DNA of 64,000 bases from Vicinamibacterales bacterium (GCA_963665465.1 OY762226.1:5387986-5451985); one strand, 5' to 3'. Positions 12,131-64,000 are shown, numbered from the stretch's first letter. A program made the numbers and translations. Notes: generated by a model from the letters alone, not told the origin.

Positions 12131-12143
12131 CGGGTGTTCCGTC

Positions 12144-31600: not shown

Positions 31601-32105
31601 TGCACGGGTCGCATGACACCGACACGCGGGGCCGCAGGTTCGGCGGGGGCTCGGGGGGCTCTGATGGCTCTGAGGGCTCGGGGGGCTCGGGGGGCCGCGG
31701 CACGTCAATGGTCGCGGGGGCTCCCGTTCCTTCCGCATTGCGCGCTCGAACCCTTACCGTGTAGGCGTCGCCCGCGCCCACCCCGGAGATCTCGAAGCTG
31801 GTCGTGGTGGTTGTGGCTTGCGTCCACGTGGAGCTGCCCTGCAGCCGGTACTCGTAGTCGTAGCCGGCTACCGCCGTGCCGGCGGCTCCGCTGCCCGACA
31901 TGCGCGCGGTGTCGAACGGAACGACGACGCTGCTGTCGCTCCCGTCCAGGAAGCCGGCGGGGGGAGCCCAGTTGACGGAGAGGATCCCCGTGTCGCTGTC
32001 GAGGCTTCCCGTGAGCGAGCGCACCGGCGCCGGTGGACCCGCATCCTTCACCACGACCGTCAACTCCAGGCCGAACCGTCGCAGCCGGTCCTCTGGCCCT
32101 CTCCC
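28698..32105 (-). CDS. Autotransporter adhesin, main part (FN3, PKD-like, cadherin repeats, beta-barrel); N-terminus lies in another frame
   Basis: The C-terminal ~300 aa is an autotransporter beta-domain-like region. Two near-identical 103-aa cadherin-type repeats are present (NEPPxFESSEY.FELGENIDGSRRPVALGEV.ATDLDGDELTYEL). DPDGD motifs and an FN3-like domain follow LELTVVVKDAGPPAPV. Upstream of ~32105 this frame is Arg-rich nonsense. Confidence 0.7.
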   Translation of the reverse strand, partial: GRGPEDRLRRFGLELTVVVKDAGPPAPVRSLTGSLDSDTGILSVNWAPPAGFLDGSDSSVVVPFDTARMSGSGAAGTAVAGYDYEYRLQGSSTWTQATTTTTSFEISGVGAGDAYTVRVRARNAEGTGAPATIDVPRPPEPPEPSEPSEPPEPPPNLRPRVSVSCDPCTVPPGGEVQLTATASDPDGDDLTYAWSAPEGVFGEETDAATARWTAPEATGRVRFRVRVSDEHGASASATVIVEVANEPPEFESSEYVFELGENIDGSRRPVALGEVAATDLDGDELTYELASGDRSRFEVGARDGALRYIGPGEDFESEAKRYELTVRVRDPYGAEAEVGVAVTITNMNEPPAFESSEYAFELGENIDGSRRPVALGEVTATDLDGDELTYELASGDRSRFEVGARDGALRYIGPGEDFESEAKRYELTVRVRDPYGVEADVGVLVTITDMNEPPEANDDEAATDEDQGVTVDVLANDTDPDGDELRVASLSAPAHGATAVTGGAVRYTPAVNYHGVDRFTYVVADGNGATTEAAVEVTVRAVNDSPVAVGVIPDQVLDEGGDAATVELTPFFEDIDGDALAYRASSSDPSVAAAAVTGAVLTLAPADYGSAAVTVTAEDEGGLTATQTFAVGVSDRFVRGVVRDTLAGMARSHLASARMTLGRRVTAGRAEGSRLTLLGRGIPLGQAAARAAGEQMLASWLSSWTTPYGSPAGRPGFGAGGGGSGVPAARGPATGEMPAAAGLHGVAAAGRGGVAGVTGGPGGFGSFGGLGGLGGFGGGADPLRGSEFLLSLGGGQDADEGRGPGRRWQVWGQGDVQAFQGEPSAAAGYDGSLLTGYAGVDTWVTERWLAGLAVARSRGRGDWRAGGSQGALATTLTAVHPYVQWADGATSVWATAGGGWGAAENVRRSGRRGASGLGLRLGLVELRRRLGAAAGGWRFGVRADGAWAQLRTAAGEESIDDQTAAVNQVRVGAEVSRPLRLGGVSLAPFGEAHVRRDGGAGQPGGGLEVAGGLRAAAGRVRVDAQGRVLAVHSAAGYRERGVGVTLSVGNQDQEGLSLSVSPRWGDSAIGGGALWQDQVHRRYLPEADPDEWVLDARSEYGLRLASGRLVTWFGSLNHSPFGRRFLVGGSVGVLD

Positions 32106-32994
32106 GGAAGGTTGTTGAGACTGTGCCCGCTGCTGACGCGGACCTTGTAGAGGTTGTCGCCGCCGCTGTCGGTCGGGGTCTCGTAGTCGGGCGCGGCCGT
32201 GAGATTCAAGCGGCCGGTCCCGGAACTGGCGGATGTGGAGGTGGGTGTCACCGCAAAGAGGGTGCTGTCCTCGCCGGCGGAGGACGGCCATGCCGAGAAC
32301 GTCACCGCGTCGCCGGCCACCAGGCACCTGTAGGTCATGACGGGATCGCCGGTCCCCCAGGTGCGCGTACCCGTGCCGTGGGCCGACCAGGCGAAGGCCA
32401 GGGCCGGGTCTACGGTTGCACCCTCGTAGATCTCGATCCGCGGAGTGCCCCAACGCAGGTCGCCGATGGACTGTGCGTCCGTGAACTGGGCCGACGCGTC
32501 GTACCTCACCCGGATAATGAACGCGGCCTGGCTTGTCGCGCCCTCGAAGATCCCCCCGTCCACCTGCACGTCGGCGCCGACCGCCCCGGAGGCGCCGTAT
32601 ACCGCGGCGAAAGCAGCGGGAGACACGGACTGCGGCGTGATCCGGATCTTCGTGTTGCCCTCGAGAAAAGTGGCGTCCAGCAGCAAATCCGTTATGGGCA
32701 CGACGCTGCCGCCGACCAGCTCCCCCCTGAGCTCGTAGGTGGAGGAGGAGGAACCCGCGGAAAACGTGATCTCGTTCTTCGGAGTAGCGGGCTGGTGGCC
32801 GGCAGGGAAGAGCACGTAGCTCGGGGTCTGCGCGCGGCCAGGTGCGACGGACGTCGCAGCGAACGCGAGGGCCGCGATGACCACCGCCGGCCGGGGCAAC
32901 GGGCGATGGCGAACGCCTCCGCCCCACGCCGGCCGCCGGCGGTCGCGTACCCGTTCCTCCACCCCTGCATGAACCATTGGATGCATCTCGTACA
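32060..32994 (-). CDS. N-terminal part of the same adhesin (signal peptide plus passenger start), separated by an apparent frameshift
   Basis: RPAVVIAALAFAATSVAPGRAQT is signal-like, followed by a beta-rich passenger ending ...DYETPTDSGGDNLYKVRVSS. The frame stops at 32060 while the downstream domain continues in another frame. The start codon is uncertain (33037 / 32995 / 32986). Confidence 0.55.
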
Positions 32995-47621: not shown

Positions 47622-47924
47622 GTGGATCCCCGCGTGGTCTACACTGCGGGGGGCGACGTGCTGGATGAGCTCTCCTGGCGTCGCTACGGTCGCGCCGACA
47701 CTGTCCCGATGGTGCTGGCCGTGAATCCGGGGTTGGCTGACGTTGCCCCGGTGCTGCTGGCGAACACCCCGATCGTGCTCCCAGACCTGCCGCCAGCGGC
47801 CCGGGGTCCGCCTGCCGGTCGGCTGTGGGATGTCGCGCCTGCGTGGATCGTGCTGCCAGAGAGTCTCGGCGCCTACGTGCGGCTCCGTGGGGCCCTCCGC
47901 ATCGCCGTTCGAGTAGGCGGATGA
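47622..47924 (+). CDS. Phage tail protein X (P2 gpX-like); homology covers the first 70 codons
   Basis: VVYTAGGDVLDELSWRRYGRADTVPMVLAVNPGLADVAPVLLANTPIVLPDL......RLWD parallels P2 gpX (GDTLDAICVRYYGR...VLAANPGLAE...LPD...LWE, from memory). The ORF reads on past the expected end at 47831. Confidence 0.55.
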   Translation: MDPRVVYTAGGDVLDELSWRRYGRADTVPMVLAVNPGLADVAPVLLANTPIVLPDLPPAARGPPAGRLWDVAPAWIVLPESLGAYVRLRGALRIAVRVGG

Positions 47925-48019
47925 ACGACCCTGCGCCAGCGTCTCTCGCACAACATGCAGGGCCGGGTTTCGGGACCACCGAGTGTGCGACTATTCGAGC
48001 GAGCGGATAAAGCGCTGTG

Positions 48020-48601
48020 GTCGTCTTCCAGGCGGATGTTGAAGTGGATCCCGTCGACCCACACGTAGACGAAGTCGCACCCCGACAGGTCCCGGCGCCG
48101 GAACGCCTGATACTCGGTGTCCCAAGTGCCCGTCAGCCGCGCGATGTTCGTCGCGCTCAGACCCGCCGCGTCCTCACCGAGCAGCACCGGCAACGCCTCG
48201 CGGAAGTCGCCCGTCGACAAGCCGCGCAGATACAGCAGCGGCAGAACCTCGGCCACCTGCGGCGACCGCCGCATGTACGGCGGCAGGATCCGGCTCGTGA
48301 ACCGCTGCCGCGCGCCGTCGTCGTCAACCCGCTGGTCGTTCACCCGCGGCGCACAAACCTGCATCGTCCCTGCACCGCAGGTCACCGTGCGGGATTGCCC
48401 ACGGCCGTTGCGCACGACCAGCCGCCGGCCGGCTGCGTCGCGCGCGTCGGCATGCGCCTCGATGTAGTGCGCAACCTCTTCCTCCAACGCCGTCGCCAGC
48501 ATCCGTCGCGCGCCCTCTCGGGCCACCTCATCGAGGGTCGGAGCGACACTCTCGGTCGTGCCGGCGTTGTCTTCGCGCGCTGGGTCGAGTACCTTCAGCA
48601 T
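48020..48601 (-). pseudogene. IS256-family transposase, N-terminal 194-codon fragment
   Basis: MLKVLDPA...LDEVAREGARRMLATALEEEVAHYIE...RILPPYMRRSPQVAEVLPLLYLRGLSTGDF...FVYVWVDGIHFNIRLEDD, after which similarity is lost. Confidence 0.8.
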
Positions 48602-48861
48602 TGGGTGGTGTCTCCTTCCCCCCGGCCCGCCAGCCAGGGTGGTTTTCGTGTTCACGTGGAAGGATACGCCACCTGTTTCACGCCGCCCGATCCACAACTT
48701 TCGGTTATATCTCCGCTGTGGTCAGCGGATCCGCTGCGAGTTTCGCATGGTGAACAGATCCAGTACTCTCTTCCAGTACTCTCTTGCTCTTGCGACTGGC
48801 TCTTGCGACTGCGGTCTGGTGTCGACGTCGATGGCGCAGGCACGGGGAAACAAAACTGGCG

Positions 48862-50871: not shown

Positions 50872-52020
50872 CTAGATGTCCCTCTCGACATACGCCGCCC
50901 ACTGGTCCATCAGCGGACGGCGTTTCTCTAGCAGATCGGACCTCGCGTAGGATGCCTCCGTCTGGTTCCTCACTACGTGAGCGAGCGCGGCTTCGATGAC
51001 CTCGCGCGGGTGGTTCGTTCGCTCCGACGCCCAGTCCCGGAACGACGAGCGGAACCCGTGCGGCACGGCTGCGACCCGTTGCTCCTTGAGCAGCTTCGAC
51101 AGCGTCATGTCGGACAGCGGCTTGCCGCGCGCACTGGGGAAAACGAGGCCGGCACGATCGCCGAGCGACGTCGCGTCGTGCAGGATCTCGACGGTGCGGC
51201 GGCTCAGCGGCACGCGATGCTCGCGCTCGGCCTTCATCCGTTCGGCAGGCACGGTCCATACGGCGGAGGTAAGATTGATCTCGTTCCACGTCGCCAGCCG
51301 CACCTCGCCAGACCGTGCCGCCGTGAGGACCAGGAATTCGAACGCCAGCTTGGTCCCGAGCCACGCGCGGGAGCCGTGCACTACAGCGACCGCAGCCGCT
51401 ACCTCGCCATGAGGCAGTGCCGGCATATGGCGGACGTGTTTCGAACGTTTGGGGAGAGCTGCCGTGATGGCCTCGCCGGCCGGATTGTCCTGGCGGTATC
51501 CTTGCGCGACGGCCCATTTCATGACCGTGCCGATTCGCCGTCGCACCTTGCGCGCGGTCTCGTGCTTGCATGTCCAGATCGGCACGAGGACAGCCATCAC
51601 GTCCGCGGTCGTGATTTGGTCGACGCTCGTGCGGCCGATCTGCGGGTAGGCGTAAGCCCGGAGCGTCGACCGCCAGAGGGAAGCCGTCTTGCCCCCGTCC
51701 TTCCATGCTTCGCGATGGAGTGCGATGACCTTGTCGACCGCCGTCTCGAACGTCGGCGTCCTGGCCTTGCGTCGTTCCGTCAACAGGTCTCGACCGTCAG
51801 CGATGGCGCGGCGGTTCGTGAAGGCCCGGTCGCGGGCCATCGCCAGCGAGACGACCGGCCAGCCGCCGAGGCCGAGATCGTGCCGGCGGCCGTCGATCGT
51901 GATCCGCTGGACCCAGTTCTTCGTTCCGCGAGGAGAGACGACGAGATGCAGCGTGCCGCCGTCGCCGTACCGGCCCGGCATCGTCAACGCGCGCACCTTG
52001 CCGACGGTCAGTTTGCCCAA
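50872..52020 (-). CDS. int: P4-type tyrosine integrase (DUF4102 N-terminal domain)
   Basis: 382 aa. The N-terminus GKLTVGKVRAL..PGRYGDGGTLHLVVSPRGTKNWVQR is DUF4102-like. Catalytic motifs are AARSGEV, HGFRSSFRDW and ALAHVVRNQTEASYARSD. Confidence 0.85.
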   Translation of the reverse strand: MGKLTVGKVRALTMPGRYGDGGTLHLVVSPRGTKNWVQRITIDGRRHDLGLGGWPVVSLAMARDRAFTNRRAIADGRDLLTERRKARTPTFETAVDKVIALHREAWKDGGKTASLWRSTLRAYAYPQIGRTSVDQITTADVMAVLVPIWTCKHETARKVRRRIGTVMKWAVAQGYRQDNPAGEAITAALPKRSKHVRHMPALPHGEVAAAVAVVHGSRAWLGTKLAFEFLVLTAARSGEVRLATWNEINLTSAVWTVPAERMKAEREHRVPLSRRTVEILHDATSLGDRAGLVFPSARGKPLSDMTLSKLLKEQRVAAVPHGFRSSFRDWASERTNHPREVIEAALAHVVRNQTEASYARSDLLEKRRPLMDQWAAYVERDI

Positions 52021-52182
52021 GCAGCCTCTCGTTCAGCCCTCATCGTAATCCCACCAATTATACCACTCCAAATGTGGGATTCACTGAAACCGTCTGCGAG
52101 CTCATGAAACACAGAATCCGCAGGACCGGTCAATGATTACGGGCCAGCGTGGAACGTCCTGGGTGGGGGCGGAACAGGCAGG

Positions 52183-52216
52183 TGGCGTCCCCAACGGGAG
52201 TCGAACCCGTCCCGCA
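52183..52216 (-). other. tRNA-Glu-like 3' fragment (T-arm, acceptor 3' strand, CCA); probable att remnant
   Basis: The minus strand reads ...ACGGGTTCGACTCCCGTTGGGGACGCCA. The T-stem/loop is canonical and GGGGACG-CCA is the tRNA-Glu acceptor end. The upstream 60 nt do not fold into D and anticodon arms. Confidence 0.4.
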
Positions 52217-52295
52217 GAAGAAGATCCCCGGGACTGCCTTCTTCCCGGGCGGTTGTGGCCTGTGGCGAGAGAGACCCGGCGCGGACTTGCTTCCC

Positions 52296-52883
52296 ATGCC
52301 ACTCGGGAAGGTCATGGTTCTCGGGCAGGACTTCAACAACAAGAAGGGGTACTCGAAAGCCCTCGAGGTGGGGCACGAGCTGGGTACCCCCACATGGCGG
52401 GGGTCGGGGCGGGGGCGGGGCCTGCTTGGGCTCCTGAGAGACGCCAACATCTCGCCGACGGACTGCTTCTTCACGAACGCGTACATGGGGTTGCGCTCCG
52501 CCGAGTCCAGCAACAATGGTCCGTTTCCGGGAAGGACGGACAAGGAATTCGTGGAACGATGCCAGTCGTTCCTGCAGAAGCAGATCGCTGTGCAGCAACC
52601 GAGACTCCTCCTGGTACTAGGGTTGGAGGTCGTGAGGTTCATCGCACCGCTCTCGCCTCAGTTGGACGTGTGGCTCGACGCGTCCAACTGGGGGAGCGTG
52701 GACGCCGCTGGCCCCGTGAAGCATCAGGTGCGCTTCGGTGACGGTACGGCGCGGATGATCGTCGTCACCCTGCTGCACCCCAGCTACCGGGAGCTGAACT
52801 TGAAGCTCCGCAGCTACCGCGGCCGGACAGGGGACGAGGCGGAGCTGACCATGCTGCGGGAGAGCGCGACGGCGCTGTTCTGA
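52296..52883 (+). CDS. Uracil-DNA-glycosylase-superfamily-like protein
   Basis: VMVLGQDF (compare GQDPY), FFTNAYMG and LLHPSY (compare HPS) occur in UDG-fold order. 195 aa. The family is not assigned. Confidence 0.45.
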   Translation: MPLGKVMVLGQDFNNKKGYSKALEVGHELGTPTWRGSGRGRGLLGLLRDANISPTDCFFTNAYMGLRSAESSNNGPFPGRTDKEFVERCQSFLQKQIAVQQPRLLLVLGLEVVRFIAPLSPQLDVWLDASNWGSVDAAGPVKHQVRFGDGTARMIVVTLLHPSYRELNLKLRSYRGRTGDEAELTMLRESATALF

Positions 52884-54057
52884 GGCTTCGGTGCCGACAG
52901 GCGTTCGGCCATGCGTTGCGTCAGCAACGTCCGGGCCTTATCGACAACGTGCTGCTGGCCGACCGCGACCGCGCGCGGGCGAGCTGATCGCCGCGCGCCG
53001 TACGGTCGAGGGCGGGCGAGCAGCCGTCGGCGGCGGCCCCCGCCGGGACCGCGTGCCGGCGTCGAGCTCGCCGACGAAGTTCCTCGCGATCGACGTCGCC
53101 CTGGTCGGCCGCCCAGCGGTCGGCCGCGGCGGATCGTGCTGCCGCAGCGGCATAACGCCGCCGGCGGCGGCGCCGCGGGCGGCGGTCCGGTCAATGATCC
53201 CAGTGGTTTTCTGGCCGATCGGCGGGAGGCCGAGCCGGTCTACGTAACGCCTGTTATCGGACGCCGGCCCGACCTCGGGCCGGCCCCGTTGGCGTACACC
53301 CCATACGATCAACGGATATATTTCTCGTCGGGCGTCCGCTGAACCACGGTCTTCAGCGCCCGGCCGAGCTCCCGCGACTCGGCAGTCGTTCACGAGCGCA
53401 TGCGCCAACGCGTAGAGCTCCACGGCGTTCTTCGCCCCATCGAACCGCACCTCGATCCGATTCCGTTCGACGGTGACGCCCTCGGGCAGGCTCACCAGCT
53501 TCGCGCCGAGCGACTCGACGGGCAGCTTCACGCGGATCCCGGTCAACCGCGCCTTCCGGAGCTCGCCGACCAGGTGCTGCCGACGTTCCTCCTCGACACG
53601 GAACGCCGCAGGGGGACGCACGCCTCGCCCCTGCGCGCGCTGCGCGAGGCGGTGCTCGAACGCAACCGCGAAGGACGGACGGCATGATCGCTGACTGTCT
53701 ACCACCGGCTCACCGCGGCCGTCAGCGACGTCGAATCAGCGGACCGTTCGCGCACGACAGCCGCACCGCCGCCCTCGCCGGCGGACGCCCTGCGGGGCAG
53801 CCCTGGAGTCCGCCCCCGAACTCCCGCTTACGCCTGCCGGAGCATTCCGCGCACCGGTCTGGACCCGACCCGCTCCCCTTGGGTCGTGCGAGCATGTCAC
53901 CATGCAGATGAAGGCGCGGGTCGCGACGGCCTCGACAAGTCCCGCTCCCTCGCCGAGTCAACCGCGTCTGGGAGGCGCGCCGAACGGTTCCGTCACCCCC
54001 CAGGCCCTGGGAGTTGCCCGACACAACGTCCACGCTCTTTGAGTTAGGTTCCCAACC

Positions 54058-54930
54058 GTGATCTATTGCCCCTACAGCAATCGTGACCTCCCGGAGAATG
54101 CGACGAACCGCGAACATATCCTGCCGCTATCGCTCGGCGGTGTTGATGGTTTCGAGATACGTGTCGACACGGCGGTCAATTCGTATCTCGGTACAGCTCT
54201 CGACGCGCCGCTCGCCAGTGAACTCCTCTTCGCGTTGCGTCGAACGAAGTACAACGTTCGTGGACACAGTGGTAAGGAGCCTTTGGCGACGATCAGGAAG
54301 GCGCGCTATGGATCTAACAACCGACCGGCGCAGGTATCCTTCCATTCTAAGAGAGGATTGTGCGTTTGGGACGCGCGGGACCGCAAAGAGGTTACGGAGA
54401 GCGTCGGTGCTTTCTGCATCAACACCTCGCTAAATATCGATTTGCCCGTGCGCTTCACCGCAAAAGTCGCACTTGCCGCCGGATACTACGTCTACGGCAA
54501 CCTATTCCGCGAGCATGTTGATCATCACCAACTGCGAGACGTGATGAACACCGATCCAGCCAAACTCGCTCTGCGCGCTTCCCGGGCCGTGCCCACACCT
54601 GAGCGCCTCACACTGCAAGTTGATAGCTACTTGCACACGCCTCCCTCTGATAACGACATAACTCTCCCAGCCCTTCGGGCATTCTGCTCGACAGTGAGAG
54701 GGTCGGTCGTCGTGCTTATGCCGGGTCCAGACTGTTTCGGGGTTGGGGTTGGAATCCTTGGACAATACCTTGGGACGATAATCGCGCCCGCCAAGACCGA
54801 TTCATTTCCCAACGCTGGCGACTATGCATGGGGGCACGTCGTAGCCAGCGTTGACGGCAAGCTTCGGCGATGGTCTTGGGTGCACGCGCTCACACAGTGG
54901 ACAGGGATTTTGTCGAGCGAAGAACCGTGA
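54058..54930 (+). CDS. HNH-endonuclease-domain protein (290 aa)
   Basis: N-terminal CPYSNRDLPENATNREHILPLSLGG is an HNH-type motif. The C-terminal ~200 aa is unassigned. GC is visibly lower than in the neighbours. Confidence 0.55.
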   Translation: MIYCPYSNRDLPENATNREHILPLSLGGVDGFEIRVDTAVNSYLGTALDAPLASELLFALRRTKYNVRGHSGKEPLATIRKARYGSNNRPAQVSFHSKRGLCVWDARDRKEVTESVGAFCINTSLNIDLPVRFTAKVALAAGYYVYGNLFREHVDHHQLRDVMNTDPAKLALRASRAVPTPERLTLQVDSYLHTPPSDNDITLPALRAFCSTVRGSVVVLMPGPDCFGVGVGILGQYLGTIIAPAKTDSFPNAGDYAWGHVVASVDGKLRRWSWVHALTQWTGILSSEEP

Positions 54931-55128
54931 CTACTCCGCGCCGGCGGCGCGCTCCGCGACGCGGCGCTCCTCCGCCCAAACGGATCACTGATTCCGGTCC
55001 AAGCCGATCGCCGATTCCGGTCCAGACCGATCACCCCCGGTGGGAGCCGAGCGGCGCGGGACGACCCGCCGGGTGCGCGCCTTGGGTCGGATAACGCAGA
55101 CTGACTCGGCGGACGGGCGGCCTGCTGC

Positions 55129-55165
55129 GGGTTGTTTGCGGGAGGGGGCGCATTCCTACGTTTAG
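55129..55165 (+). repeat. Tn3-family terminal inverted repeat (copy 1)
   Basis: GGGTTGTTTGCGGGAGGGGGCGCATTCCTACGTTTAG. It has the GGG...ACG.TAAG-type architecture and 33/37 identity to 56273..56309. Confidence 0.65.
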
Positions 55166-55189
55166 CTCGCGCGTCACGGTCCTGCGGCT

Positions 55190-55411
55190 TCAGGACGCAA
55201 GGACCTTCTGGCCCTGCTCGCGTAGCTCGCCCTGCGGGCCGACGTACCGGTAGAGCGTCACCGGCCTGATGCCGAGCTCCCGGCACAGCGCGGACACCGA
55301 CGTGTCGCGGTGCGCCATCGCGGCCTGGGCGAGCCGCATCTGAGCTTTCGTCAGCGCGAACTTCCTCCCACCCCTGCGCCCGCGTGCCCGTGCGGCTTTG
55401 AGCCCGGCCAC
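55190..55411 (-). pseudogene. tnpR: Resolvase/invertase C-terminal HTH fragment
   Basis: AGLKAARARGRRGGRKFALTKAQMRLAQAAMAHRDTSVSALCRELGIRPVTLYRYV is the linker plus HTH of a small serine recombinase. The catalytic domain is absent. Confidence 0.6.
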
Positions 55412-55912
55412 GGTTGCGTTCGCGGATCAGCTCCCGCTCGCTCGGGCCAGCCCATCACCCGCTGCCCCGCATCGATGCGCCGGCCCCACTCCGCGAGCCC
55501 GGGCGCGCTCCTCCTCCTCGGCCTCGCGCCGCAGGCGGGTCCAGGTAGCGCTCGTGCCGGCCGCCGCGACACCGCGAGCCGGCGACGCCCGCTCCGCCTC
55601 GTTCCACACTCGCATCACAGCCACTCCATCCTGACCGCCGTTCAGTCGCGTCCCGAACCCCCGCGGGAGCTCGACGTCGAGGGCGTCGAGGTCGACGTCG
55701 TAGACGCCTTCGAGGAGCTCGGCGGTCCGGGAGTCGGCCAAGGACTCGGGCAGCTGATCGCGCCAGGCTTCGTACTCGGCCTGCAGGGTCCGGAGCTCGG
55801 CCAGGGCCGCAGCCCATCGCCTCGGCCGCGGCGGCGTCCGGGGCGGTGGGACGCCGGCGTTGCGGCGCTCGCGCCAGCGAGGGTACCGACACCATTCGTG
55901 TTCTGGTGCACG

Positions 55913-56272
55913 CTAACGGCTCGGCCTGAGCCCTCTGGTGGTCATGAAGCTGTACAGGGCGGTCCGGGACACGCCCGTGAGCTTGGCGATGGCGGTCTTC
56001 GAGACGCCGAGCCGAGCTCGAGGAAGCGCCGGATCTCGTCCTCCTTGCCGTCGAGCCGTGAGACGCCCAGCGACCCCTTCGGGCGACCGAGCTTCCGGCC
56101 CGAGGGCCTCGCCCGGGCGAGGCCCTCGCGGGTGCGCTCGGAGATCCCGCGGTGTTCGGGTGCGACGACCTGGGGTGCGGGCTGACGGGCCTGGACGTGG
56201 CGCATGTTGGCCGTCGCTGGCTTGGTCATCGCGGCCGTCCCGGCTGATCGGCTGACACCCGAGCCCTCCACC
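55913..56272 (-). pseudogene. tnpR: Second resolvase C-terminal fragment, frameshifted
   Basis: ISERTREGLARARPSGRKLGRPKG...DEIRRFLELG, then in the next frame VSKTAIAKLTGVSRTALYSFM. It is cut upstream by the Tn3-type IR at 56273. Confidence 0.5.
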
Positions 56273-56309
56273 GGGTTGTTTGCGGGAGGGGGCGAAATCC
56301 TACGCTAAG
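56273..56309 (+). repeat. Tn3-family terminal inverted repeat (copy 2), adjacent to the tnpA 3' end
   Basis: GGGTTGTTTGCGGGAGGGGGCGAAATCCTACGCTAAG. It overlaps the tnpA stop codon (56300..56302), as in Tn3-family elements. Confidence 0.7.
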
Positions 56310-57290
56310 GATTTCGGGCTGCCTGTGGAGCCGGTGCGTGGCCAGCGGTATTCTCCGGTCAGGTTGATGTGCTCCCAGCCGAGCGGCGAGACGTGGGCCG
56401 GGAACTCGGGCGGGATCTCGAGGCCGGCCTTGCGCCCGGCGGAGACGGCCTCGCCGAGCTTCAACGTGTTCCAGTAGATGATGATCGCGGCCAGCAGGTT
56501 GAGGCCGGCGACCCGGTAGTGCTGCCCTTCGCCGGTTCGGTCCCGCAGCTCGCCGCGTTGATGGAAGTTGATGGCGCGCTTGAGGGCGTGGTGCGCCTCG
56601 CCCTTGTTCAATCCGACCTGGACCCGACGTCGCATCCCGGGGTCCGTGGTCCAGTCGATCATGAACAGGGAGCGTTCGACGCGGCCGACCTCCCGCAGGG
56701 CAGCCGCCAGCTCGTTCTGGCGCGGGTACGCGGCGAGCTTGCGCAGGATCTGGCTGGGCCGCAGCGTCCCGGCGGCCATGGTGGCCGCGACGCGCAGGAT
56801 GTCCGCCCAGTTCCGGTCGATCAGGTCGACGTTCACCTTGCCGCCGACCAGCGGGCGCAGGAGCTTCGGGACGCCCGCGCGATCGAACACGTAGAGGCGC
56901 TTCGACGGCAGGTCCCGGATGCGCGGGACGAACGCGTAGCCGAGGATCGAGCACGCGGCGAAGACGTGGTCGGTGAATCCGCCCGTGTCGGCGTGCGGGG
57001 AAGAACTGGCCGTCGCTGGAGGCGGTCCGTCCCGTGCCCCAGGCGGCGGCCATCGGAAGCGCGGCCTGGGCCTCGACGATGATGGCCAGGGCTCGGTCGA
57101 ACGCATCGCCTTCCACGTGCCAGCGGGCGATGCGCATCAACTCCCAGAAGCCGTGCGTGGTCGTGGCCTCACCATCCTGCCGGCCACGACCACGGTCGAG
57201 CGGCTCTGCGCCGATGCGCTCGTCGACGCCAAGGCCTTGCTGATGGCGGGGACGGCGCGCGCGGTCGGCGGCCCGCGCGAAACCAGCCAG
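56300..57290 (-). pseudogene. tnpA: Tn3-family transposase, C-terminal third with internal out-of-frame deletion
   Basis: ...AALPMAAAWGTGRTASSDGQFF | HADTGGFTDHVFAACSILGYAFVPRIRDL...QVGLNKGEAHHALKRAINFHQRGELRDR..GEGQ...AAIIIYWNT...LSPLGWEHINLTGEYRW. The frame changes near 56990 and the N-terminal ~650 aa are missing. Confidence 0.8.
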
Positions 57291-57334: not shown

Positions 57335-57637
57335 ATGAGGACCATCGCTTCACGAACGCTGGCGGCGAGCCCCGGGCAAGTGTGGGCCGCGCTCGAAAAA
57401 GAGGGCGCCCTCGTGGTGACCAAGGATGGGGTGCCGCGAAGCATCATGGTGCCGACCAGCGACGCCACGCTGCTCGAAGACATTCAGGAGATCGTGTTCG
57501 CACGCGCCCGCAAGGCGGTTCGGGAAATCCGGAGGCACGCCGCGGAGACCGGAGCCGCCGACGTGACGCACGCCGACATCGAGCGGGAGATCAAGGCGGC
57601 GAGGCAGGCGCGCAAGCAGAGGGTCCGGCGTGGATGA
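57335..57637 (+). CDS. Type II antitoxin (Phd/YefM-like N-terminus)
   Basis: 100 aa. SPGQVWAALEKEGALVVTKDGVPRSIMV is the Phd-like beta-hairpin region. It overlaps the downstream PIN gene by 8 bp. Confidence 0.6.
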   Translation: MRTIASRTLAASPGQVWAALEKEGALVVTKDGVPRSIMVPTSDATLLEDIQEIVFARARKAVREIRRHAAETGAADVTHADIEREIKAARQARKQRVRRG

Positions 57638-58058
57638 CCCTCCCGTCTGGGTCGTGGACACCAACGTACTGGTTTCCGGCCTGCTCTCGCCCTTCGGGCC
57701 ACCCGGACGGCTCGTTGACGTGCTGCAGGCGGGAGGATTGAGGCTGGCCGTCGACGACCGGATCGAGGCGGAGTACCGCGAGGTTCTGGCCCGTCCCCGG
57801 TTTGGCATCGAGCGATTCCGGCAGGACGCCTTCCTGGCCATCCTCCAGTTTCAGGAACACGTCGCCGCTCTACCCTGGACGCACGGCCCGCCGCCGGACG
57901 AGGACGACGTCATGTTCCTGGAAGTCGCTCTTCAGACAGCCGCGCGCACCCTCGTCACCGGTAACGTCAGGCACTTCCCTCCTCGCTGCCGGGGTTCCGT
58001 GACCGTGTGGTCACCCCGCACGGCCTGGGAGCACTTCGTCGACCCGCAGCCCGAATAG
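57630..58058 (+). CDS. PIN-domain toxin (PIN_3 / TIGR00305-like)
   Basis: VWVVDTNVLVSGLLSPFGPPGRLV...DDVMFLEVALQTAARTLVTGNVRHF carries the conserved acidic PIN residues. Confidence 0.7.
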   Translation: MDDPPVWVVDTNVLVSGLLSPFGPPGRLVDVLQAGGLRLAVDDRIEAEYREVLARPRFGIERFRQDAFLAILQFQEHVAALPWTHGPPPDEDDVMFLEVALQTAARTLVTGNVRHFPPRCRGSVTVWSPRTAWEHFVDPQPE

Positions 58059-58283
58059 ACCGCGAGGCGGCCGTGGAGGTGATACTGCTCGCACAAGAGC
58101 GGAAAGCGCGGCGCAGGCATGTCCCTGATACTGAGCGTCGCTCGTACCCAGGAACCGTTCGTCAGCGCGTGGGCCAGCCCGCACCGCGCCGGACGCCGGA
58201 GCTGCCTCTCTGCCAGAATTGGCTGAGAGGCGTCCGTAGCTGCTGAACGCGCTGTTACGGACTGACGTAACCGTCCCATACCG

Positions 58284-61253
58284 ATGCACCCCATTCATCG
58301 TCGTTACCACGCGGAGGAACTGGTCCGCCTTCGGCCCGCCAGCGCACGTCGGCGGCAAGTGGCGTCACAACGCCGCGGGCGAATCGACCCCAACCCGCAC
58401 CAGGTCGATGCGGTCATGTTCGCGCTGCGCCGCATCCCGGAAGGCGGCTGCATCCTCGCTGACGAAGTCGGCCTGGGCAAGACTATCGAAGCCGGCCTCG
58501 TCGTCGCTCAACTGCTGGCGGAGGGGGCCACGCGGGTGCTCATCGTCGTGCCGCGCCCCCTGCTCGGACAGTGGCAGCACGAGCTCTACACGCTGTTCGG
58601 CATCGAGGCCGTCGAGGCGGCGGACGCTGCTATCGACGTCGGTGGCGCGGGCATCTTCCTCGCCGGGCGCGAGTACGTCGGAGCGAACACGGGGTTCGCA
58701 CGCCTGAGCGGGTCGCCGCCCTTCGATCTGTGCCTGATCGACGAAGCCCATGAGGTCTTCGCCGGCATTCACCGCCGCTTCGACCGCGACGGCGTGTACG
58801 ACGAGGACAGCCGGTTCGCGCGGACCGCGCATCGGATGCGCAAGGTCATCGGGGCATCGCCGGTCGTGCTGCTGACCGCGACGCCGATCCAGAACTCGCT
58901 CGCCGAGTTGTGGGGGCTCGTCCAGTACGTCGACCCGACGGGCACGCTGCTCGGGGCGAAGCCGGTGTTCGAGGACGTCTTCTGCGCCGGCGGCGACGGC
59001 CGCGGGGTCGCCGCGGAACAAGCCCGGGAACTCCGGCGCCGACTCGGGACCGTCATTCAGCGCACGCTCCGCCGTCAGGCCCAGGAGTTCCTCGACAAGC
59101 CGTTCGTCGGCCGCCGCGCCCAGCTCTTCGAGTACCGCATGAGCTCGGCCGAGCGCACCCTCTACGACGACGTCACCGACTACCTGTTGCGGCCGCAGCT
59201 CCATGCGTTCCAGGGCCGCTCGCGGCAGCTGTTGCTGCTCGGCTTCCACCGCCGCATGGCGTCCTCGACCGCGGCGCTGGCCGCCAGCCTCGATCGGGTT
59301 GCGAGCCGTCTGCGGGCGCGGCTGGCGGGCGACAGGGATCCGGAGGCAGCCACCGCGTTTACAGGGGACCTCGAAGACGATCCGCCGGATGTCGCGCCGG
59401 CGACCGACGACGCCGCTTCACCGGCCGAAACCGCGGGCGGGCCGGAGCTGGACAGCGCTGCCGCGCGGGAGGAGCTGTCGCTCGTGGAGGACTTCGCGCG
59501 GCGCGCGCGAGCCTTGCCCCACGACGGCAAGGCGGACAGCCTGGTCAAGGCGGTGCGGCTCGTCATGGCTCGGCCCGAAGACCGCCGCAAGGTCGTGATC
59601 TTCACCGAATCGCTCACCACGCAGGACTACCTGCGCAAGCTCCTGCTCGATCAGACGGCACTCGTGGACGCCGACATCACGCTCTTCCGCGGAGTCAACG
59701 ACTCCTCCCGCGCACACGGGGCGTTGGGCGTCTGGCGGGAAGAGGTGGAGCCCGACATCGCTCCGCACCTGCGGCCGAGCGCCACCGTCGCCGTGCGCCT
59801 GGCCCTGGTGCACGAGTTCCGGACGCGGTCCGTGGTGCTGATCTCGTCGGAGGCGGGGGCGAAGGGCCTCAACCTGCAGTTCTGCGACACCGTCGTCAAC
59901 TACGACCTGCCCTGGAACCCCCAGCGCATCGAGCAGCGCATCGGCCGCTGCCACCGCTACGGCCAGAAGCGGGACGTCACGGTGATCAACTTCCTCGCCA
60001 AGGACAACGAGGCGCAGCGCCTCACGTTCGAGATACTCAGCACCAAGCTCGACCTGTTCGGCAAGGTGCTCGATACCTCCGACGTGGTGTTGCAGACCCC
60101 GCGCTCCGATGCGTCGGAGGAACTCGTCTCGGCGCTGGGCCCGGACTTCGAGACCGAGGTGCGCCGTATCTGGGACCGGGCGCGGTCGGCGCAAGAGGTC
60201 GAAGACGAGCTGCGCCGGCTGCGCGACACCCTGGAGGAACGCCGGCAGGAACTCGAGCGCGTACGGGGGCGGACGATCGGGCTCATCGAGACGAGCCTCG
60301 ACGAATCGGTCCGCGACGTCTTCCGCCGGATCCAATCCGACCTGCCGGCGACGCTGGCCGCACTCGATGGAGATCTCGAGCGCGTGCTGACGACCTGGCT
60401 CGATACGGCCGGCATCCCCTGGGGCGCGGCGGAACGCGACGGCCGCCGGGTGTTCCACATCGGCGCCTCGCCGCGCCTTCCGGCCAGCGCGGCCAGCGGC
60501 TTGACCGTGGCCCTCGGCCCGGCCCGCGACCTCGCCGACATCGAGTCGCTGCACCTCGCCCACCCGTTGATCGAGGCAGCGGTCGCCGAGGCGCGGCAGA
60601 CCGGGGCGGGCCCCTTCCGCGTTCGGTTCCGTCTCGGCAGGGATGTTCCCGAGGTGCTGCGGCGTCGTCACGGCGACCGCGGCCGGCTGGCGCTGACGCG
60701 GACCGCCCACCGCGGCTTCGAGCGCGAAGACCGGCTGCGCGTGACGGCCGTCTTCGAAGACGAGGAAGTCCTGCGTCCGGCGGAGGCGGCGCTCGACCTC
60801 CTGCGACAGGGCTGCGAAGACGTCGGCTGCTTCGATCCGTCCCTAGCGGTGACGGCCGAACACCTGGACGAGGCGGTCGCCGAAGAGATGTTCCTCGACC
60901 AGAGTGCCGCTGCGGCCGCCGACCGGTCCGGCTTCGAAGGCGCCCTGGACCAGCTCGACCAGTTCCTCGCCGACAAGACGCTCGTGTTGCGCCGTGCCCG
61001 CGACGAGCGCGCCAAGCGCCTCGCCGCCGCCGAACGGCACCGGGATCAGGCGCTCGGCGCCGACAAGCGGGCGAAGGCCATGGCGCGCGTGGGCGCGCTC
61101 GAGGCCGAGATCGCGGACCTCGACGAGCGGCTCGCGCAACTGGCCGCCCGCGAGGACGACACCTATCGCCGCTGGCACGAAGACGCGCACCACCGCCGCT
61201 TCCAGCGCCCGGAGATCGAGCGGTTGCTCACGGCGGAGTTCGTGATCGAATGA
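58284..61253 (+). CDS. SNF2-family helicase with ~350-aa uncharacterised C-terminal extension (989 aa)
   Basis: PHQVDAV, motif I DEVGLGKT, motif II LIDEAHEV, LLTATPIQNSLAELW, and motif VI WNPQRIEQRIGRCHRYGQ. The C-terminal coiled-coil-rich region is unassigned. Confidence 0.85.
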   Translation: MHPIHRRYHAEELVRLRPASARRRQVASQRRGRIDPNPHQVDAVMFALRRIPEGGCILADEVGLGKTIEAGLVVAQLLAEGATRVLIVVPRPLLGQWQHELYTLFGIEAVEAADAAIDVGGAGIFLAGREYVGANTGFARLSGSPPFDLCLIDEAHEVFAGIHRRFDRDGVYDEDSRFARTAHRMRKVIGASPVVLLTATPIQNSLAELWGLVQYVDPTGTLLGAKPVFEDVFCAGGDGRGVAAEQARELRRRLGTVIQRTLRRQAQEFLDKPFVGRRAQLFEYRMSSAERTLYDDVTDYLLRPQLHAFQGRSRQLLLLGFHRRMASSTAALAASLDRVASRLRARLAGDRDPEAATAFTGDLEDDPPDVAPATDDAASPAETAGGPELDSAAAREELSLVEDFARRARALPHDGKADSLVKAVRLVMARPEDRRKVVIFTESLTTQDYLRKLLLDQTALVDADITLFRGVNDSSRAHGALGVWREEVEPDIAPHLRPSATVAVRLALVHEFRTRSVVLISSEAGAKGLNLQFCDTVVNYDLPWNPQRIEQRIGRCHRYGQKRDVTVINFLAKDNEAQRLTFEILSTKLDLFGKVLDTSDVVLQTPRSDASEELVSALGPDFETEVRRIWDRARSAQEVEDELRRLRDTLEERRQELERVRGRTIGLIETSLDESVRDVFRRIQSDLPATLAALDGDLERVLTTWLDTAGIPWGAAERDGRRVFHIGASPRLPASAASGLTVALGPARDLADIESLHLAHPLIEAAVAEARQTGAGPFRVRFRLGRDVPEVLRRRHGDRGRLALTRTAHRGFEREDRLRVTAVFEDEEVLRPAEAALDLLRQGCEDVGCFDPSLAVTAEHLDEAVAEEMFLDQSAAAAADRSGFEGALDQLDQFLADKTLVLRRARDERAKRLAAAERHRDQALGADKRAKAMARVGALEAEIADLDERLAQLAAREDDTYRRWHEDAHHRRFQRPEIERLLTAEFVIE

Positions 61254-62413
61254 CCCGGCGCGGCACCGGCATGGAGAACGACGTGGCGCTGACGTTGCTG
61301 CACACCGCCGACTGGCACCTGGGCCGGCGCTTCCCCGCGTTCGGGCTCGACCAGGAGCTGCGCCTGACCCGGGCACGCCTCGAGGTCGTAGGCCGCATTC
61401 TGGATCTGGCCCACAGCCGCGCCGTCGACGCCGTCCTCTGCGCGGGCGACCTCTTCGATCAGCCGGCGCCGGACGCGCAGTGGTGGGAAGGCGTCCTCAA
61501 GGAGTTCCAGCGCCGCGACTGGCAGCGCCCGGTCGTGCTGCTGCCCGGCAATCACGACCCGCTCCAGCCGGGGTCCGTCTACTACCGAGAGCACCCGTTC
61601 CGATCCGGGCTGCCCGGCTACGTGCATGTCGTGGACCGGCCGGGATGGCAACTGCCGCTCGGCGAGGGCGCCGTGGTGTACGCGAGTCCGTGCACGTCCC
61701 ATGCCGGTCAGACGCAACTGGCGGAAACGCTGCCGGCCCGCGGGCCAGACGATCAGCGCATCCGCATCGGGCTGGTGCACGGCCAGACCTTCGACATCGA
61801 CGGCCACCAGACGAACTTCCCCGTCGCCCGGGGCAGCGCCGCGGCGCGCGGCCTCGACTACCTCGCCATCGGGGACACGCACGCCTTCCGTGAGGTCGAG
61901 CCGAACGCGCCCGCGCCCACGGTCTACCCTGGCGCGCCGGAGGCCACCAACTTCGGCGAGCGGGACACGGGGAACGTGGCCATCGCGTTCTTCCCGCTCG
62001 ACCGCCGACGCCGCGCCATCGTGCGGCCCGAGGCCGTCGGCTCTTGGGCCTGGCGCGACGCGACCTGCCGGTCGATGCCGGAACTGCGTGCGCTCGCCTC
62101 CGAACCCAACCTGCGCAAGACCGTGCTGCGCCTGAGCCTCGACATGGCCGTGCCCATGGCCGAGTACGACGAGGCGGAGCGCATCGTGAGCGAGCTCAGC
62201 GGGTCCATGGCGGCGACGCCGCGGGCCGGCGTTCTCCTCGTGGACCGCGGCGCCCTGCGCCTTGCCGCCGCGAGTCCCGTCGAGTTCGGCACCGAACTGC
62301 CGCCCGTGCTGCTATCGGCAGCGCACCGCCTCCAGGACCGCGCCGAGAGCGAGCCGGAGCTTGTCGAGCGGGCCCTGCATCACTTGTACCGGATGGTTCG
62401 GCAGTCGGATTGA
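61250..62413 (+). CDS. SbcD/Mre11-like calcineurin-type metallophosphoesterase (387 aa)
   Basis: The ATG overlaps the SNF2 stop (ATGA). The phosphoesterase motifs are LLHTADWHLG, CAGDLFD, LLPGNHD, LVHG and AIGDTH. An alternative start lies at 61271. Confidence 0.75.
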   Translation: MTRRGTGMENDVALTLLHTADWHLGRRFPAFGLDQELRLTRARLEVVGRILDLAHSRAVDAVLCAGDLFDQPAPDAQWWEGVLKEFQRRDWQRPVVLLPGNHDPLQPGSVYYREHPFRSGLPGYVHVVDRPGWQLPLGEGAVVYASPCTSHAGQTQLAETLPARGPDDQRIRIGLVHGQTFDIDGHQTNFPVARGSAAARGLDYLAIGDTHAFREVEPNAPAPTVYPGAPEATNFGERDTGNVAIAFFPLDRRRRAIVRPEAVGSWAWRDATCRSMPELRALASEPNLRKTVLRLSLDMAVPMAEYDEAERIVSELSGSMAATPRAGVLLVDRGALRLAAASPVEFGTELPPVLLSAAHRLQDRAESEPELVERALHHLYRMVRQSD

Positions 62414-62421
62414 CGGCAACG

Positions 62422-64000
62422 ATGTGGATCAAGCGCCTTCAGGTGAACGATTGGGCGGGCATCGCCGCCGCGGCCATCGACCTCGAACCCGGCCTGAATG
62501 TTCTGCACGGCCCCAACGAGCTCGGCAAGTCGAGCCTGGTGAACGCGATCCGCGCCGCGTTGCTGCTGCAGTCGACGTCAGCCGCCGCCGCTCCCATGCG
62601 CGACTGGCACGCCGACGCGCCGCCGGGCGTGGCTCTCACCTTGGAACAGGAAGCGCAGCGCGTCTGGCGGGTGCGCAAGAGCTTCGGCAGCAGCGGCCAC
62701 GCGTACCTCGAGCTCTCCCGCGACGGCAGCGAGTTCACGCAGGAAGGCAAGGGGCGCGAGGTGGACGGCACGCTGCGGCGCATTCTGCGCTGGGGCCTCA
62801 AGGGTCCCGGGCTGCCCGGCGGCAAGCACGGCATGGCCGAGTCGTTCATCACCACGGCCCTTCTCGGCGAGCAGAGCGACGTCGTGGCCATCCTGCGCAC
62901 CAGCCTCGCCGGCGACGGCGACGATTCCGGCCGCGAACACCTCAGCGAGGCACTGCAGGCCCTGGCCGAGGACCCCCGCTTCAAGCGCGTCCTGGCGGCC
63001 GTGCAGGAGAAGGTGGACGAAGCGTTCACGGCGAGCGGGAGGAAGCGGACAGGCCAGGCCTCGCCGTGGGCCCAGATCCGCGGGCAACGTGTCGCGGCCG
63101 AGGCCAACGAGCGCGACGTGCGCCAGCAGCTGGAGGAGAGCGAGAGCGCCCGCCTGCGCACGAAGGGGCTGCACGAGCAGTTGCTCGCGGCGGAATCGGC
63201 GAGGCAGCGCGCGGACCGCGTTCTCGCAGCGCTTGAATCTGCTCTCGCCCGCCGCAAGGCGCGCGACGCGGCCGAGGCCGCCCTCGCTACCGCCGAGGCC
63301 GAGTGCAGCCGGGTTCAGGGGCTGTTCGACCGTCGCGACAAGAACAGCGCCGCCATTGCCGCCGGCGGCGAGCGGGTTTCCGAGCTCGAGAAAGCGCGTG
63401 CTGAAGCCGAGGCTGCAGCCGAGAGCCGGAAACTCCGGGTCGGGGCCGCTCGAGAACAGGTGCGCCGTCTTGAGACCGGCGCCGGCGAGCAGCAACGGCG
63501 GCTGCGCGAGGAGGAGGCGAAGAACCGGCGCCTGGAGCTGGAGCGCAGCCAACAGGGACACGAACAAAAGGTCGCGTGGGCGCAGGCACTGGCCAAGCGG
63601 GAAGAGGAGATCGCGGCGCTCGCAGCCGATGTCGACAAGCGGGAGACGGAGCTCAAGGAGCGAGAAGGACTCCTGCGCGATGCGGTGGCCGCCGCCGCCC
63701 GGGACCGCGACGAAATCGGAGCCCTCGAGGTGGAGCGCCAGTGCGCCCGCTACCTCGGGACGTTGAGCGCGGCACGGGCATCCACCGCGGCGCTCGACGC
63801 TGCCCGCGAGCACGCTCGGCAGGCGGCCGCGCTGGAACGCAAGGCCGCCGCGACGCGGGAAGAGGCCGCCGACCTCCACGCGCCGGCGGGTGCCGAGCTC
63901 GACCAGCTCCGGTCCCTGGAGACGGATTGGCGCATCGCGCGGGAGAAGCTCGCCGTTGGCCTCGCCGTGGAGGTCGCACTGGAGCGAGGCGGCACGGCCG
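62422..64000 (+). CDS. SbcC/Rad50-like SMC-type ATPase, N-terminal part (continues beyond window)
   Basis: The ATG lies 8 nt after the upstream stop. It has Walker A HGPNELGKSS and a long Ala/Glu/Arg-rich coiled coil from ~63100 to the window end. There is no stop in frame. Confidence 0.75.
   Translation, partial: MWIKRLQVNDWAGIAAAAIDLEPGLNVLHGPNELGKSSLVNAIRAALLLQSTSAAAAPMRDWHADAPPGVALTLEQEAQRVWRVRKSFGSSGHAYLELSRDGSEFTQEGKGREVDGTLRRILRWGLKGPGLPGGKHGMAESFITTALLGEQSDVVAILRTSLAGDGDDSGREHLSEALQALAEDPRFKRVLAAVQEKVDEAFTASGRKRTGQASPWAQIRGQRVAAEANERDVRQQLEESESARLRTKGLHEQLLAAESARQRADRVLAALESALARRKARDAAEAALATAEAECSRVQGLFDRRDKNSAAIAAGGERVSELEKARAEAEAAAESRKLRVGAAREQVRRLETGAGEQQRRLREEEAKNRRLELERSQQGHEQKVAWAQALAKREEEIAALAADVDKRETELKEREGLLRDAVAAAARDRDEIGALEVERQCARYLGTLSAARASTAALDAAREHARQAAALERKAAATREEAADLHAPAGAELDQLRSLETDWRIAREKLAVGLAVEVALERGGTA

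Follow-up and report, generated by a model that had tools for sequence, protein, structure and literature searches.

A three-gene cassette encoding a SNF2 ATPase, an SbcD-like nuclease and an SbcC-like ATPase was found from position 58284 to the end of a stretch of 64,000 nucleotides (nt) from a Vicinamibacterales bacterium (GCA_963665465.1 OY762226.1:5387986-5451985; the whole stretch is called the window below). The cassette is a real unit, closed after the SbcC-like gene, and most likely encodes an SbcCD-type nuclease that is mobile and has a SNF2 partner of DrmD/RapA-like type, a combination undescribed in the literature searched. An earlier account made from the sequence alone (the sequence-only reading) had placed three same-strand genes here as a candidate defence system, and their positions were found to be right to the base. 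The open reading frame (ORF) of the 989-amino-acid (aa) SNF2 ATPase was confirmed, and so were the junctions and the genes that follow. The SNF2 stop codon overlaps the ATG of the 387-aa SbcD-type gene in an ATGA at 61250-61253, this second gene ends with TGA at 62411-62413, and the ATG of the SMC/Rad50-like ATPase gene (62422; Walker A GPNELGKSS) was found 8 nt past that stop. The third gene runs off the window, its frame open at 64000 after 526 of about 1076 codons. The first gene was found to contain the Pfam domains SNF2-rel_dom and Helicase_C, followed by the presence of Metallophos in the second and AAA_23/AAA_27/SMC_N in the third. Because start and stop codons overlap or lie 1-8 nt apart, the genes are read as one transcription and translation unit.

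The nuclease was searched against one genome per species, which gave 61 loci (numbered here with an L), and a profile search added eight; L002 and L146, both 94-95% identical to the window copy, stood in for the full-length cassette. By tblastn, the SNF2 gene was found directly upstream and the SbcC-like gene directly downstream of the nuclease gene in nearly all loci. The trio was full-length and tightly spaced in 42 of the 61, and its order and spacing were also kept in the eight added loci. The SNF2 and nuclease genes overlap by 4 nt at the closest and lie a few tens of nt apart at the most; the nuclease and ATPase genes are mostly 1-8 nt apart. Since the same order is found in 42 intact, tightly spaced copies among 61 loci, the trio is far beyond chance. 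In a clustering of the ORFs of the 61 loci only these three genes were found to be conserved, with no flanking family in more than eight loci, and the operon therefore closes after the ATPase gene, whose product is about 1076 aa long in L001, L002 and L146, the nearest relatives. A fourth operon gene was rejected on this clustering and on the identity between L001 and L002, which ends after the ATPase stop. The suggestion that further operon genes might lie past 64000 was thus not borne out, as homologous loci were found to end with the SbcC-like gene.

Conservation of the three-gene neighbourhood, which the sequence-only reading had proposed as a check, held among nuclease relatives at identities of at least about 49%, where both partners were present wherever the DNA reaches, visibly broken copies aside. 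Nuclease relatives at 35% identity or less were found in two-gene nuclease/ATPase pairs without SNF2, as in a Methanobacteriaceae metagenome-assembled genome (MAG), Atribacter, Isosphaeraceae, Rhizobium pRL12 and Tsukamurella; in the profile search for distant relatives, canonical SbcD of Bacteroidota prevailed through its generic HTADWHLG motif. As close relatives carry the SNF2 gene and distant ones lack it, the trio is read as an SbcD/SbcC-like clade that acquired a SNF2 gene. A helicase near the SbcD/AAA pair of Tsukamurella was rejected as the same cassette, being a distant SNF2-type helicase separated from the pair by other genes. The same gene order was found in more than 65 loci; the carriers belong to at least eight phyla overall, and include Pseudomonadales/Azotimanducaceae (many of them sponge-associated), Acidobacteriota, Latescibacterota, Myxococcota, Planctomycetota, Gemmatimonadota, Spirochaetia and Alphaproteobacteria. 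The cassette was abundant in sponge-associated and sediment bacteria. Exact-protein look-ups for the SNF2 and SbcD-like proteins of the window gave no match, and an exact 40-mer of the window did not occur in the genome and metagenome collections.

The trio behaves as one block in inheritance, in transfer and in loss. In blastn, the similarity of the window locus to other loci was found to begin at 58270-58287, that is, at the SNF2 start codon, with L002 alone extending 170 nt further; the rest of the 64-kb window matched no locus. The trios of an alphaproteobacterial MAG (L001) and a Vicinamibacterales MAG of the Acidobacteriota (L002) were 90.75% identical in nt over 7034-14406, from 1 nt before the SNF2 ATG to 3 nt past the ATPase stop, which is exactly the trio, and their flanks were unrelated. 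An integron cassette as the cause of these gene-tight borders was rejected, as an attC site would not fit into the 3 nt of similarity past the stop codon. At L157, a gltX-like gene and glnS were found to be split by 8.6 kb consisting of the trio and a HEPN/MNT pair, whereas in a Holophagales MAG (L181) the same two genes are adjacent, about 60 bp apart, and form an empty site; both synthetase genes of this MAG show 92% protein identity to those of the trio-bearing relative. The same slot on sister contigs was found to contain the trio with RES-Xre and PDDEXK_4 (L167), and additionally a methyltransferase, GmrSD_N and SIR2_2 (L159). As a side observation, the slot between these two class I tRNA-synthetase genes (L157-L170 compared with L181) is an insertion hot spot with changing cargo, and the methyltransferase, GmrSD_N and SIR2_2 cargo sits just beyond glnS. 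The sequence-only reading had set a conserved housekeeping repair operon in core-genome synteny against its own proposal; the variable flanks, the 90.75% identity across phyla and the empty site in a related genome do not agree with such an operon.

Two genomes were found to contain two copies of the trio each, with the second copy decayed in both, and about a dozen loci were broken by IS-sized (insertion sequence) insertions between the genes, by truncation of the ATPase gene or by loss of SNF2. The ratio of nonsynonymous to synonymous divergence (dN/dS) was 0.08-0.41 across the three genes, indicating purifying selection, and the ATPase evolves fastest; together with the conserved catalytic motifs, these values indicate that the proteins are functional. 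In L004, L005 and L007 the flanks were 93-98% identical and the SNF2 and nuclease genes 88-95%, the ATPase gene (about 11175-14525) just 72-76%, with a synonymous divergence (dS) of 0.72-0.90, three times that of SNF2 in one lineage. In these three loci, recombination inside the cassette seems to have replaced the ATPase gene. A phage- or plasmid-borne origin of the cassette was rejected, as no close relative was found in the plasmid, phage and viral-contig collections searched.

The SNF2 protein was found to contain a SNF2 ATPase core at residues ~30-640, with a variable acidic linker at ~345-395, followed by the presence of a RapA-like long-helix C-terminal module at ~640-989. It is a member of the SNF2 family by its Pfam matches (SNF2-rel_dom 1.9e-22, Helicase_C 1e-15 and ResIII), and the motifs I (DEVGLGKT, K66), II (DEAH, D153/E154) and VI (QRIGRCHRYGQ) were conserved in 51 sequences. 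In PADLOC-DB v2 the protein matched DrmD at 1.9e-115, a match confined to residues 32-660. The NCBIfam cut-offs for DrmD were missed, with 386 against 950 bits for NF038318 (DrmD_b; residues 32-660) and 221 against 610 for NF038317. The best PDB sequence match was RapA, residues 24-218 of the query being aligned to RapA 141-333; since the alignment starts at RapA residue ~141, the N-terminal RNA-polymerase-binding domain of RapA is absent. The RapA model NF003426 gave 129 bits and did not reach its cut-off of 576.

The ~350-aa C-terminal region, which had been left unassigned in the sequence-only reading, proved to be assignable to the fold of the C-terminal part of E. coli RapA. The AlphaFold2 (AF2) model of residues 601-989 had a mean predicted local distance difference test score (pLDDT) of 85, and its sole significant PDB fold match was RapA 8t0l_F (E 7e-6, 345 columns). 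This module is rare, with 246 clusters among 1.84 billion representatives and full-length members of ~965-1027 aa. Judged by its sequence, the SNF2 protein belongs to the DrmD-like branch and has a RapA-like architecture without the RapA N-terminal domain. DrmD-like SNF2 proteins are required in the DISARM-related ARMADA II (ArmA; PMC13463889) and in ietHAS (ietH; PMC13069673), and in both published systems defence requires the SNF2 gene, which opens the operon (PMC13463889, PMC13069673). The nearest plasmid relatives of the cassette SNF2 protein, at 33-37% identity over the core, were found to adjoin DNA methyltransferase and DEAD-helicase genes. These relatives stand on a Cupriavidus plasmid (L144, 11780-23911) and a Salmonella IncFIB plasmid (L145, 11709-21724), each with an array of a helix-turn-helix (HTH) gene, SNF2, a DNA methyltransferase and a DEAD/DEAH helicase, followed in Cupriavidus by an N-6 methylase; both arrays are annotated just generically, and they look DISARM/ARMADA-like or type III-like.

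The invariant residues of the nuclease were found to include H18, D21, H23, D67, N101, H102, H177, D209 and H211, and the five phosphoesterase motifs of the two-metal site (D21/H23, D67, N101/H102, H177 and H211) were invariant in alignments of 18 and of 50 sequences. The SbcD cut-offs were missed (64.1 against 77.65 for TIGR00619 and 36 against 450 for NF008206), and the PDB sequence matches were T. maritima Mre11 and E. coli SbcD. The AF2 model (pLDDT 88, predicted template modelling score 0.83) had T. maritima Mre11:Rad50 3qg5 and E. coli SbcD 4m0v as its top folds (E about 1e-12), and was aligned with Mre11/SbcD over 366-429 columns, capping domain included, at E values from 5e-13 to 1e-11. 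The model predicts C-terminal helices at 352-363 and 369-386, at the position of the Rad50-binding motif. On these comparisons the nuclease is a divergent branch of Mre11/SbcD. It had no match in PADLOC-DB v2, and no specific phage family was found in PHROGs for either the nuclease or the ATPase.

The 5′ part of the ATPase was 93.5% identical to L002, whose full protein has 1076 aa. A Walker A motif GPNxxGKS (K36) was conserved at the N-terminal side, followed ~900 residues later by the presence of a signature-like LSVGTxEQ, an hhLDD Walker B, TQSD and TCH at the C-terminal side. The top PDB profile matches of the ATPase family were the head lobes of Rad50, and coiled-coil proteins came next. 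A CxxC zinc hook was found in the central region of none of 52 full-length homologues; the centre contains a conserved non-coil block with invariant G513, D531 and G568. In PADLOC-DB v2 the ATPase was matched by LmuB and GajA over its first ~50-60 residues only (LmuB at residues 3-50, 5e-11), and Pfam AAA_27 was barely above its cut-off (24.7 against 22).

The contexts of the other loci were taken from the assembly index and annotated by Pfam. In L147-155, a complete type I Zorya system (ZorA, ZorB, the EH_Signature protein ZorC and the SNF2-Mrr protein ZorD) was found 3 kb upstream of the trio, with a Y-family polymerase and RelB/ParE downstream. The flanks of L146 were found to contain reverse transcriptases, an ADP-ribosylglycohydrolase, DUF5131, PIN and an IS element, those of L177 IS elements, a NucS-like gene and PIN; an AAA-ATPase_like/PDDEXK_9 gene is near the trio in L178 and Schlafen-AlbA_2 in L179. 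A few MkoA-like, AbiEii-like and kinase matches were present among the 103 nearest neighbours (aggregated counts). The mobile or defence-island setting that had been proposed for the window copy was thus seen to recur at other loci, and the trio is an accessory set, often but not always among defence, toxin-antitoxin and mobile genes. As a side observation, in L147-L152 (1-9583) a MerR regulator and a 776-aa VIT/VWA protein come between the Zorya operon and the trio, immediately upstream of the latter, and this pair may be another accessory module.

Upstream of the cassette, a leader was found to be common to the window and L002 only (Table 1); in other loci, upstream similarity starts just 0-15 nt 5′ of the SNF2 ATG. 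No sigma-70-like promoter was called in the leader at 58114-58283, promoter and terminator scans being uninformative in such high-GC DNA. A perfect palindrome, GTTACG-N6-CGTAAC, was found at 58254-58271, 13 nt 5′ of the SNF2 start, and is also present in L002; it could be an operator. A TAnAnT-like hexamer (TATACT, TAGACT, TAAACT, TACACT or TACAAT) was found about 20-35 nt 5′ of the SNF2 start in many loci, including L004-L009, L015, L019, L023, L026, L033 and L052, whose upstream DNA is otherwise unrelated. The recurrence of this hexamer suggests that the cassette brings its own minimal -10 element. Many loci were also found to contain a second in-frame ATG two codons 5′ of the SNF2 start (ATGCCCATGCAC...), and L012 contains a GCCATC hexamer in a tandem run at about 6890-6960, directly 5′ of the SNF2 gene.

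Table 1. Location of the cassette genes and of neighbouring features in the window
Feature	Position	Strand	Evidence
Gene 1, RapA/DrmD-like SNF2 ATPase, 989 aa	58284..61253	+	ORF, Pfam, PADLOC, NCBIfam, AF2 model
Gene 2, predicted Mre11/SbcD-type Mn-phosphoesterase nuclease, 387 aa	61250..62413	+	ORF, Pfam, TIGR00619, AF2 model
Gene 3, Rad50/SbcC-superfamily ABC ATPase, 5′ part only	62422..64000	+	ORF, Pfam, homologues
Leader common to window and L002 only	58114..58283	+	blastn against loci, upstream alignment
Antitoxin-like ORF and PIN-domain toxin (PIN domain 57630-58058)	57335..58058	+	Pfam PIN_3 4e-19
Island/transposon debris	50872..57106	.	Pfam
P4-type tyrosine integrase	50872-52020	minus	Pfam
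Tn3 transposase, C-terminal fragment	56300-57106	minus	Pfam

The PIN toxin-antitoxin pair and the Tn3 remnants that had been named as neighbours of the trio were both confirmed, the PIN domain and the Tn3 fragment by Pfam (Table 1). The pair lies outside the conserved cassette and is not conserved at other loci, and the debris was found to contain also a UDG-superfamily gene, an HNH-like ORF and a resolvase HTH fragment. Further from the cassette, the window contains two 3.1-kb copies (972-4098 and 12667-15793) that are 99.9% identical, each with three consecutive tyrosine recombinases of 333, 317 and 307 aa with Phage_integrase domains, in a 'recombinase in trio' layout. A 1.8-kb duplicate (15828-17632 and 25843-27644, 99.8% identity) was found to contain large serine recombinase genes (Resolvase, Recombinase and Zn_ribbon_recom); 731-946 matches 25630-25845, and a third serine recombinase is present at 4929-7286. 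Transposase genes of IS21-like (rve and Mu-transposase C-terminal), IS110-family, IS5/DDE_Tnp_1 and Mutator-family types were found at 7460-11601, 19395-20789 and 47873-48697, and the window further encodes RTX proteins, a cadherin/Ig autotransporter (28698-32927), GH113 genes and a Ser/Thr kinase. With its recombinases, IS, RTX and other genes, the entire window looks like a highly plastic accessory region.

With regard to function, the cassette is probably, at about an even chance and as judged from sequence and gene context, a horizontally mobile, innate defence module against mobile elements that is built from repair parts. Mre11-Rad50/SbcCD are ATP-gated complexes that cut DNA ends, hairpins and protein-blocked ends, and SNF2 enzymes track double-stranded DNA and displace bound proteins. 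The nuclease and the ATPase of the cassette would form an SbcCD-type ATP-gated nuclease complex. In DNA that enters the cell from phages, plasmids or transformation, this complex would recognise ends, hairpins or replication intermediates. The SNF2 motor may be an added specificity or processivity factor that pushes the complex along its target or strips end-protecting or DNA-bound proteins, and would in this way deliver or clear the DNA for the nuclease to cut. Physical association of the SNF2 protein with the nuclease and the ATPase is suggested by the operon structure only. As the cassette has no methyltransferase, it would distinguish self from non-self by the structure of the DNA and not by modification.

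Several lines of evidence support defence. Parts of SbcCD have been recruited for immunity before, as proposed for Lamassu in a 2025 study (PMC12663957), and a DrmD-like SNF2 protein is required in ARMADA (PMC13463889) and ietHAS (PMC13069673). Neighbours of Zorya, GmrSD/SIR2, toxin-antitoxin, integrase and IS type recur, and the cassette has gene-tight borders, an empty site, second copies and frequent decay.

Several observations weigh against defence. Toxin-antitoxin pairs are common in such genomes, and the 103 nearest neighbours were found to contain 144 Pfam families that are heterogeneous, without a dominant defence family; many neighbours are metabolic genes, and tRNA synthetases, sulfatases and hydratases are among the families. 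The context of L171 contained nothing recognisable, and the distant two-gene relatives stand in ordinary contexts. Close relatives were absent from 72,556 plasmids, 50,697 phage records and 2.9 million viral contigs, and all carriers are MAGs or metagenome contigs, uncultured; because no carrier has been cultured, the cassette may have escaped notice. The closest characterised two-gene architecture, SbcE/SbcF, acts in double-strand-break repair and transformation (PMC2811018).

The last of these points leads to the explanation that survives best beside defence, namely that the trio is an accessory repair or recombination module, in which an SbcEF-type end-processing nuclease with its own motor spreads horizontally like optional repair cassettes and acts on the cell's own protein-blocked or hairpin-capped breaks, DNA-protein crosslinks or stalled forks. 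This is a possibility of lower probability, to be kept in view. Archaeal operons joining a helicase with Mre11/Rad50 for repair exist (HerA-NurA-Mre11-Rad50), and the core pair of the cassette has the SbcD/Mre11 fold and a Rad50-like head. In lacking a hook and having a central block, the ATPase is like SbcE of B. subtilis, a protein of double-strand-break repair and competence (PMC2811018). The ordinary chromosomal or chromid contexts of the distant two-gene relatives, which are annotated 'DNA repair exonuclease', the Y-family polymerase adjoining the trio in L147, the strong purifying selection and the lack of a modification gene are likewise consistent with repair. However, near-identical copies were found across phyla with gene-tight borders, and a close relative has an empty site; pseudogenisation and IS disruption are frequent, the Zorya, GmrSD/SIR2 and toxin-antitoxin neighbours recur, and the SNF2 partner comes from the defence-linked DrmD branch and not from a repair helicase family.

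It is improbable that the trio has been named before, for instance in a description later than 2023. The PADLOC models compared date from 2023 and the literature searched was open-access only, which leaves some room for it, but no paper on a defence operon of a DrmD/SNF2 helicase with SbcCD/Mre11-Rad50 was found in open-access full text, nor any that joins SNF2/DrmD with SbcC, SbcD, Mre11 or Rad50 in a defence context. Recent accounts of DrmD-like partners name DISARM, ARMADA and ietHAS only (PMC13069673, PMC13463889), and the passages on SbcD, helicase, Mre11 and clades in the 2025 study of Lamassu/SbcCD evolution contain no such trio (PMC12663957). The sequence-only reading, which could not match the trio to a named system, was upheld here, as PADLOC-DB v2 gave partial matches only and all NCBIfam scores were under the curated cut-offs. 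Cargo that serves a mobile element, by DNA-end processing or protection in transfer or integration or by exclusion of competitors, and thus for maintenance and not for host immunity, is very unlikely: the window is full of recombinases and IS, and integrases or IS flank some copies, but in most loci the genes nearest to the trio include neither an integrase nor a transposase, the plasmid, phage and viral-contig collections counted above hold no relatives at useful identity, and just three genes travel, with no larger element.

If the defence module proposed above is correct, the cassette would be a third use, beside Lamassu and Wadjet, of Rad50/SMC-type machines against foreign DNA, and the first such system to keep a complete Mre11 nuclease coupled to a SNF2 motor. 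As a tractable model it would also allow study in bacteria of how a translocase of the remodeller type helps Mre11-Rad50 to reach or process ends, a question so far mainly eukaryotic, and would extend the view of DrmD-like SNF2 proteins as exchangeable front ends (DISARM, ARMADA, ietHAS). A stronger form of this proposal is put forward only tentatively: the three proteins could act as one machine, in which a RapA/DrmD-like SNF2 translocase physically drives a Rad50/Mre11 nuclease that lacks a hook and invading DNA is destroyed without self-marking by modification. They could represent a new SMC-type immunity family, distinct from both Lamassu and Wadjet, and a bacterial counterpart of eukaryotic remodeller-assisted Mre11-Rad50 end resection. 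If its role is repair instead, the trio would still be a new and widely transferred helicase-nuclease-ATPase combination. The cassette is of interest to specialists in phage defence and in the Mre11-Rad50 mechanism.

When compared with known systems, the cassette was found to share with SbcCD/Mre11-Rad50 (E. coli SbcCD, and Mre11-Rad50 of T. maritima and archaea) the gene order of nuclease then ATPase, the Mre11 fold with all phosphoesterase motifs and a two-helix C-terminal tail, and an ATPase in which long coiled coils join a Rad50-type head that has Walker A/B and a signature-like motif. It differs in being under the family cut-offs, in the lack of a CxxC hook, in the central block, in a Walker B of LDD and not DE, and in the SNF2 gene of its operon, and it is accessory, mobile and patchy, not core; the core synteny and vertical inheritance of a housekeeping sbcCD operon were not found for it. 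SbcE (YhaN) of B. subtilis is described as 'most similar to SbcC but with a unique central domain' and stands beside the SbcD-like SbcF (PMC2811018). Likened by architecture, SbcE/SbcF (YhaN/YhaO) also combine an SbcD-like nuclease gene with a downstream gene for an SbcC-like ATPase that lacks the hook and has a family-specific central domain, but they have no SNF2 partner and are reported to be conserved in Gram-positive bacteria with a role in repair and competence, whereas the cassette comes from Gram-negative-type MAG lineages and is mobile.

The SNF2 core of the cassette is nearest to DrmD models; DrmD of class 1 DISARM, ArmA of ARMADA and ietH of ietHAS are DrmD/RapA-like SNF2 partners in defence systems. 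The cassette differs from these systems in lacking DrmA/B/C, a methyltransferase and ietAS genes, no DUF1998, PLD or methyltransferase partner was found in the operon in the Pfam-annotated contexts, and its SNF2 C-terminal module is a small family of its own. It differs from RapA in the missing N-terminal RNA-polymerase-binding domain and in a score under the cut-off. Lamassu has been proposed to derive from SbcCD and to sense DNA ends, according to the 2025 study (PMC12663957). Lamassu (LmuA-LmuB-LmuC) and Wadjet (JetABCD) share with the cassette an ATPase of the SMC/Rad50 superfamily, used there against foreign DNA. In contrast to LmuB (600-800 aa), the cassette ATPase has ~1076 aa and is LmuB-like only in its first ~50 residues; a complete Mre11 takes the place of an LmuA effector with LmuC, PADLOC-DB v2 giving no LmuA or LmuC matches, and unlike Wadjet the cassette has no kleisin, KITE or Toprim subunits. 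A motor ATPase coupled genetically or functionally to Mre11-Rad50 for end processing is found in the archaeal HerA-NurA-Mre11-Rad50 system and in the eukaryotic SNF2 remodellers Fun30 and INO80 with MRX/MRN. The motor families differ, HerA being an FtsK-type hexamer, and both HerA-NurA and the remodeller systems are housekeeping repair systems.

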